From Escherichia coli (lineage in GTDB: Bacteria > Pseudomonadota > Gammaproteobacteria > Enterobacterales > Enterobacteriaceae), in the NCBI RefSeq assembly GCF_003334815.1, contig NZ_QOWO01000060.1: 10,787 nt of DNA. The stretch is one strand, 5' to 3'. The notes under the pieces are model-generated. The model had not been told where the DNA came from, made no database searches, and was given only the letters and a program-made list of their open reading frames with translations. Made by a program: the position numbers and the translations under genes. Each line of letters starts with the position of its first letter. The stretch's first letter is position 1. This document shows positions 4,128 to 4,779 of this stretch, one piece after another.

Positions 4128-4779
4128 ATATTGAAGCAGCGCTACGATGACTCCGGTGTTATCTGCACCGGAGGACCGGGAACATTAAGCGGTATAGCGA
4201 CAACAAAGAATTCGAAATCAAAAGGGAATGGTGCCGGAGGCGTGGGCGGTAATAGGCTGATTTTCAGGTATTACCGGCCTGTATCTGCTGAAGGGGGCTC
4301 GTATTTGTCGGGGCTGCGTATTCCGCTCGATTCGATCACGGATTGGCGGAATACCTAACTGTGATTGATTCAGGTACCATTTTGCAGGGATCCGGTGCGT
4401 TACTGTCTGGCACAACAAACGCAGCGGGTCGCTCTGCTCCGCCGATTCCTGATAATCCCTCCCCAGTAACCTACTGCAACAGTACAAATACACTGACGCC
4501 TGAAACGGTAACCAGAATCAGCACCAGCAGTAACTCAGTAAACAGAGCAGACGATCGGTCTTCCGGTAATAACCGGAAGGAACGACAGCGCCACAATACA
4601 GGCAACACACTGTATTATGAGTAATCGAATTACCGCAATCCCCGCATTTCTTTTTGCGTATCACGATAGCTCCCTCGCCACGCCTTATCCGTAACCGGTT
4701 TTTTACATTAAAAAAAACAACGCCGGGAATTCAATCGTCAGTCCGGAGACGACCGTTCGGGTTATCACAGAGAGCCTGA

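Follow-up and report, generated by a model that had tools for sequence, protein, structure and literature searches.

The window analyzed here is a 10,787-nucleotide stretch of an Escherichia coli contig (NZ_QOWO01000060.1, RefSeq assembly GCF_003334815.1), in a region that matches thousands of E. coli chromosomes and belongs to a CP4-44/CP4-57-like island. Its left part carries a RadC-like gene, a gene that we take to be antirestriction-like from reading its sequence (no NCBIfam match), a truncated Ag43 gene, and then genes for an 88-aa hypothetical protein and an Hha-family protein. The truncated Ag43/Cah autotransporter gene (1644–3287, minus strand) lacks its C-terminal part, i.e., its 547-aa ORF covers model positions 50–568 of 948. 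The left part of the window is also joined differently compared to strain G5, in which Ag43 is separated from the module that follows by genes that include an HTH regulator and a GTPase. Within this module, the Hha/YmoA-family gene (3951–4127, plus strand; called by PGAP, NCBIfam Hha E = 2.5e-18) and a YagK/YfjJ-like gene of the “inovirus Gp2 family” (4843–5412, plus strand; called by PGAP, phrog_25019 E = 2.3e-40) stand on either side of a minus-strand pseudogene, the former convergent with it and the latter divergent from it. The Salmonella orthologue of the YagK/YfjJ-like gene matches PF11726. Further right, two paralogous “putative zinc ribbon” genes (5578–5970 and 7134–7544, plus strand), whose Salmonella orthologues carry DUF7828 and Zn_ribbon_11 domains, are separated by a decayed IS110-family transposase gene in two ORFs (5980–6966, minus strand), while in other islands the two zinc-ribbon genes are adjacent. 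The right end of the window holds a fragment of ISL3 and a gene related to phosphotriesterases.

The minus-strand locus at 4471–4667 is a frameshifted pseudogene of a 65-aa small protein with a zinc ribbon and a C-terminal transmembrane (TM) segment, as shown by alignment with six intact E. coli paralogues (loci L002–L007) and by reading all three minus-strand frames; RefSeq places a pseudogene at the same coordinates. A Shine-Dalgarno sequence, GAGGGAG (4670–4676), read from the sequence and conserved in the paralogue alignment, lies 5 nt 5′ of a GTG codon, and the paralogues have AGGAGG ahead of an ATG at the corresponding start. In this alignment the start region (4662–4667) reads ATG GTG in L005–L007 and ATC GTG in the window and in L002–L004. 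PGAP takes the ATC (4665–4667) as start; from the alignment, the ATC is a degenerated ATG, and the GTG at 4664–4662 behind GAGGGAG is likely the functional start in the clade of the window copy. From this GTG, frame A (4518–4664) opens with VIRKKKCGDCGNSITHNTVCCLYCG and reads VIRKKKCGDCGNSITHNTVCCLYCGAVVPSGYYRKTDRLLCLLSYCWC*, ending at a premature TGA (4520–4518) after 48 codons. It contains the pattern CxxC-x9/10-(C)CxxC of a zinc ribbon, and its residues C8, C11, C21/C22, and C25 fall in alignment columns that are invariant, or nearly so, across the family. The helix lies in the −1 frame: nucleotide alignment with the intact paralogues shows the loss of a single C between 4535 and 4534 (intact CTGACGTTACTG, window CTGA-GTTACTG), beyond which 20 codons for the TM helix, LLLVLILVTVSGVSVFVLLQ (4533–4474), and a TAG stop make up the segment that is still in the ancestral frame (4471–4533). 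As the reading frame of the ribbon is no longer that of the helix, the window copy is a pseudogene and not a working family member.

The intact relatives define what was broken. Annotated, uninterrupted coding sequences for 65–66 aa occupy the same slot, between an Hha-like and a YagK/YfjJ-like gene, in all six paralogous E. coli loci, and the same slot is used in Salmonella (L010); family accessions include WP_001547002.1, WP_032240437.1, WP_001390336.1, WP_096695676.1, and WP_073487841.1, the last of which is named “zinc-ribbon domain-containing protein”. The family plan seen in these sequences comprises a predicted four-cysteine ribbon (C8-x2-C11 ... C21/C22-x2-C25), which a basic linker, GYYR-x-TDR, connects to one C-terminal TM helix that ends 0–3 residues short of the stop. 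The window copy shares 78–95% nucleotide identity with the 65-aa family and the same synteny: it runs convergently to the Hha-like gene and divergently from the YagK/YfjJ-like gene, and the DUF7828/Zn_ribbon_11 genes lie farther out. It also shares the Shine-Dalgarno sequence and start, the ribbon cysteines, the GYYRxTDR linker, and the TM codons. It differs from the family by the one missing C and by R9G, A14S, and P23L at invariant or near-invariant columns, i.e., by the loss of one invariant proline and two near-invariant residues, and it carries D29V and F31S in addition. These substitutions fit a relaxed constraint on the window copy. Some of them may predate the deletion, since a short, partial, and odd-looking record (P0010, from a 391-nt contig) has the residues of the window copy in an intact frame.

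Several independent lines argue that the intact family is a real gene. The ribbon part shows dN/dS of 0.14–0.17 against the divergent L007 copy; as a caveat, whole-gene values between close paralogues reach just 0.3–0.7. In the TM part, dN/dS against L007 exceeds 1 (ungapped codon alignment) while hydrophobicity is kept, which points to a constraint of the helix on composition and not on sequence; accordingly, the TM sequence varies by clade (…LLCLLTLLLVLILVTVSGVSVFVLLQ, …IVTILLALIIVVLLTTVSVSVYILCSW, …IFTALLALLVVVLLVTSAVSMYVLW) and is hydrophobic and at the extreme C-terminus throughout. Among intact copies the gene aligns without indels, while the adjoining downstream spacer is of low identity, with indels reaching 77 nt. 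The family alignment contains 21 invariant columns, including C8, H17, C22, P23, and the YYRxTDR linker. When 1.84 billion representatives were searched with a profile, only 25 clusters were returned at E ≤ 1e-10, essentially the enterobacterial family and its damaged forms. The tail of this search held 61–78-aa proteins of other origin, in which CxDCG...CxxCxS-DPFG is likewise followed by a basic stretch and then by a TM segment. About 64% of complete E. coli genomes carry the family, often more than once, and its E. coli copies always lie within the AlpA/Hha/YagK-YfjJ module of CP4-like islands. Frame-hopped, IS-truncated, or fused forms are numerous among the database entries, and these many disrupted variants indicate that the family is often dispensable and its copies often lost, as expected in cryptic islands.

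Two side observations concern the neighborhood and the wider relatives. The Hha-family neighbor is intact (58 aa) in the window and frameshifted or incomplete in 4 of the 6 paralogous E. coli islands (L002, L004, L005, and L006); the Hha-family gene and the small gene decay independently. Separately, distant 61–72-aa relatives (L013 5001–5219 and L014 5001–5186) have the same ribbon-DPFG-basic-TM plan; they lie within an F-type conjugative transfer cluster (TraG/TraH/TraF/TraN) and beside a TibC-like autotransporter heptosyltransferase gene. This predicted architecture thus recurs on other mobile or accessory DNA, and the contexts of the distant relatives (the F-type T4SS cluster, the TibC-like glycosyltransferase neighborhood, and a short contig) were heterogeneous and gave no functional clue.

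Next, we evaluated the origin and spread of the deletion allele. Queried as 61 nt centered on the deletion, the broken allele has exact matches in 508 complete E. coli genomes; a 62-nt query for the intact allele has exact matches in 967. Nearly all of these matches cover ≥80% of the query and hence span the deletion site. An assembly error was ruled out, as the allele recurs in 508 genomes and is therefore inherited; the deletion site is not a homopolymer. Because the frame is intact in all outgroup copies, the deletion is the derived state. One rare E. coli allele (P0023, 65 aa) reads MVIRKKKCRDCGNAITHNTVCCPYCGSVDPF-RLLPEDRSSALFTE-LLLVLILVTVSGVSVFVLLQ, a reading made from the protein sequence. 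It suggests that the C deletion is accompanied here by a second, compensating indel upstream, which would have re-joined ribbon and helix, and that only a 14-residue linker was replaced, by the out-of-frame sequence that is also seen in the 45-codon ORF described below.

In the broken locus, ribosomes would start at GTG 4664 behind GAGGGAG. The loss of the C shifts the frame, and the ribbon frame now ends at the TGA at 4520–4518 after 48 codons; the product would be at most a 48-aa ribbon peptide without most of its anchor. The −1 frame that contains the helix codons happens to be free of stops as far upstream as a GTG at 4608, which yields a 45-codon ORF. One may ask whether such a locus has become functional anew, i.e., as a soluble 48-aa ribbon, as a 17-residue re-initiation peptide, or by ribosomal frameshifting that restores the full protein. 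We consider this very unlikely. The arrangement of the sequence lends it something: the Shine-Dalgarno sequence and start are intact, and a frame-B GTG (4524–4522) lies 1 nt ahead of the frame-A stop (GTGCTGA, 4524–4518), a GTG-N-TGA arrangement at which re-initiation could, speculatively and with low confidence, produce a 17-residue hydrophobic peptide, although 17 residues are short for a membrane span. Programmed −1 ribosomal frameshifting was considered and rejected, as no canonical X_XXY_YYZ slippery heptamer occurs in frame A between 4664 and 4518 and the paralogues are already in frame. The unchanged state of the allele in 508 complete genomes could be read as a sign of maintenance, yet clonal inheritance of a neutral lesion explains this persistence equally well. 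The re-joining of ribbon and helix in P0023 through a second indel hints that their linkage can matter, but the window copy has also lost the invariant proline and the two near-invariant residues noted above. Decay of the gene is the preferred reading of the window locus.

This reading also accounts for the 45-codon ORF at 4471–4608 (minus strand), which an earlier note, made without database searches, had pointed out as a possible small hydrophobic ORF. The frame is as it described, with a GTG start and the translation VLPVLWRCRSFRLLPEDRSSALFTELLLVLILVTVSGVSVFVLLQ*, and it likewise holds that no Shine-Dalgarno sequence precedes GTG 4608: the 20 nt 5′ of it, TCGATTACTCATAATACAGT, contain no purine-rich ribosome-binding site. 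Without such a site, and with its start inside the frame-A ORF, translation of the ORF into a 45-aa product is most unlikely. The ORF shares its stop codon with the RefSeq pseudogene, and over its last 20 codons it is identical to the TM helix found in intact proteins, e.g., WP_001547002.1. The predicted C-terminal helix therefore stands, as an inheritance from a real small membrane-protein gene. The “charged N-terminal part” does not: the first 25 codons, VLPVLWRCRSFRLLPEDRSSALFTE (4534–4608), are the coding region of the zinc ribbon and linker read in the −1 frame. Overall, the boundaries 4471–4608 do not delimit a gene, and the note’s own doubt that the ORF was genuine was justified, the ORF being a by-product of gene decay.

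Frame conservation was evaluated by starting the reading at the homologous position in seven loci, i.e., the six E. coli paralogues and Salmonella, a comparison that the note had named as able to refute its proposal. The 45-codon frame is kept in none of them. In the six E. coli paralogues it is non-hydrophobic (maximum 19-residue Kyte-Doolittle score, KD19, ≤0.47) and never reaches the TM segment, and in Salmonella it meets a stop after 8 codons. The annotated frame, in contrast, retains ribbon and TM segment in 7 of 7 loci, with a C-terminal KD19 of 2.65–2.99. It follows that the 45-codon ORF is restricted to the deletion allele.

An independent small membrane protein encoded by the 45-codon ORF, possibly resembling a type I toxin, is on this evidence even less probable than a new function of the broken locus. 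The ORF is open and has a strongly hydrophobic C-terminus (KD19 of 2.97), and older pipelines deposited exactly this 45-aa sequence, which occurs in 99 contigs. Against these points, the frame is conserved in no homologue, the N-terminal 25 residues overlie a zinc-ribbon frame under purifying selection, the start has no Shine-Dalgarno sequence and lies inside the translated frame-A ORF, and RefSeq makes no such call. Nor did the searches for control elements or known systems favor it. Rfam gave no match, either across the whole window at the gathering threshold or across 3300–4900 at E ≤ 1, and thus no antisense or toxin-antitoxin family; a promoter and terminator scan of 3300–5000 returned a single site of each kind, fewer in both cases than the mean of the shuffles and at positions unsuited to the small gene; no promoter-like site was found on the plus strand within 4471–4667; and PADLOC returned no match for the small protein or its five neighbors.

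The likeness to small membrane toxins drawn in the earlier note is therefore unsupported, and the layout of the intact family speaks against it as well. Type I toxins (Hok, TisB, LdrD, IbsC, ShoB, DinQ, and ZorO) amount essentially to a helix plus a short polar tail, under the control of antisense or overlapping sRNAs. The family resembles them in being small, in having one hydrophobic helix, in residing on mobile or accessory DNA, and in being frequently inactivated. It differs in that a 39-residue, predicted cytoplasmic Cys4 ribbon precedes a C-terminal anchor, the reverse of the Hok/TisB/Ldr order, and the short ORF itself, which in a type I toxin would be conserved, is not conserved in the seven loci.

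The weakest alternative, a pure chance ORF in non-coding DNA without coding ancestry, is hardly credible: ORFs of this length do occur at the chance rate (70 window ORFs of at least 45 aa vs 68 ± 7 expected from 200 shuffles), but a hydrophobic ORF with KD19 ≥ 2.9 arose in 0 of 200 shuffles, and alignment already refutes it, since annotated, uninterrupted relatives have a TM helix identical to the last 20 codons. Among all window ORFs of at least 45 aa, the 45-codon ORF is the only one with KD19 > 2.0. This above-chance hydrophobic stretch indicates a real signal behind the tail, which need not come from the ORF as delimited.

The history of annotation follows the same course. In strain G5, RefSeq (PGAP) annotates the equivalent of 4471–4667 (minus strand) as “hypothetical protein, frameshifted”, and strain A1_181 has the same frameshifted annotation with an identical 281-nt sequence; the pseudogene status is thus already known, as RefSeq flags it. 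In GenBank/UniRef, the exact 45-aa sequence is held as “hypothetical protein EcHS_A2133 [Escherichia coli HS]” and also as “putative membrane protein”, while the 48-aa ribbon half has no deposited entry there. Older pipelines had called the same ORF as the earlier note, and PGAP later replaced it by the frameshifted pseudogene. The older 45-aa “putative membrane protein” entries (EcHS_A2133 and similar) are consequently misleading. For the window itself the outcome matters little: a speculative “small toxin” becomes an ordinary frameshifted pseudogene. The intact ribbon and tail-anchor family, which has no Pfam or NCBIfam model and is uncharacterized, is a modest candidate for small-protein studies.

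Database and literature searches placed this family near no described system. Searches of NCBIfam and of PDB sequences returned nothing meaningful for the small protein. In Pfam, the reference sequence matched generic zinc ribbons below significance (best i-Evalue 0.024), and 1 of 14 family members reached 1e-3 for any one family; Zn_ribbon_3 (PF13248), Zn_Ribbon_1 (PF13240), DZR (PF12773), UPF0547 (PF10571), and zf-ChsH2 (PF12172) have the CxxC...CxxC knuckle pair in common with it. Weak PHROG matches (phrog_38187, phrog_14275, and phrog_10292) share an N-terminal ribbon directly followed by a TM segment, but these proteins are 136–178 aa long, have an extra C-terminal domain, and are of no known function. 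In hhalign comparisons of the family with the ribbons of the two DUF7828 neighbors, one gave a probability of 46% over 24 columns and the other nothing. A tblastn search confined to CP4-57 and CP4-6 of K-12 gave chance matches only; as CP4-57 and CP4-6 hold no homologue, no K-12 gene name from these two islands applies. A literature search with accessions, the peptide, locus tags including EcHS_A2133, and neighbor gene names found nothing on the family.

Structure prediction supports an anchored protein. AlphaFold2, run with a 14-sequence family alignment, modeled residues 30–64 as a single helix, with a pLDDT of 91 from block means for residues 41–60; the ribbon was modeled with low confidence (mean pLDDT 65.6). 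Eight Arg/Lys residues precede the helix and none follow, while Cys4 zinc sites require a cytoplasmic environment; the positive-inside rule and this cytoplasmic need together point to an N-in topology. The intact protein would then be an N-in, tail-anchored inner-membrane protein with its zinc ribbon on the cytoplasmic face. ElaB, YqjD, YgaM, Flk, and DjlC are bacterial tail-anchored inner-membrane proteins and provide the closest architectural analogues of this predicted topology, with a cytoplasmic N-terminal domain, a TM segment at the extreme C-terminus, and almost no periplasmic tail. The family has no sequence relationship to these proteins, carries a minimal zinc ribbon, and is much smaller.

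The fixed position of the gene suggests a role in the regulatory or replication module of the island itself. As a guess, and a doubtful one, the protein may tether a protein or nucleic-acid partner to the membrane, or act as its adaptor there, in the AlpA/Hha/YagK-YfjJ/DUF7828 module of CP4/P4-like islands. A further, joint reading would have the intact family functional in CP4/P4-like islands and the broken allele more than inert; the intact protein could then be, e.g., a tether that holds the YagK/YfjJ-type protein of the island at the membrane, or an exclusion or toxic factor, and the broken allele could release an anchor-less ribbon peptide or the 17-residue peptide with a dominant or novel activity. 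We give very little credence to this combination.

Two further observations were made around the pseudogene. A strongly conserved block at 4178–4261 stands out in the spacer that separates the stop codons of the Hha-like and small genes and is otherwise rich in indels; the block has 89–96% identity to the divergent paralogues L004–L007 and is also present in Salmonella L010. Its plus strand is peptide-like (...GN[IV]K[RQ]Y[SN][DG]NKEFEIKREWC...), with no start codon conserved, and it had no match in Rfam or NCBIfam; a structured RNA in 4170–4270 was rejected on folding z-scores of +0.16 and +0.71. Finally, the window has an open 93-codon frame on the strand opposite the TM-coding region (4343–4624, plus strand), and in a Salmonella assembly a similar 79-aa ORF without a Pfam match was called as a gene (L010 6099–6338). 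This antisense ORF is probably the open frame usually found opposite a hydrophobic coding region.
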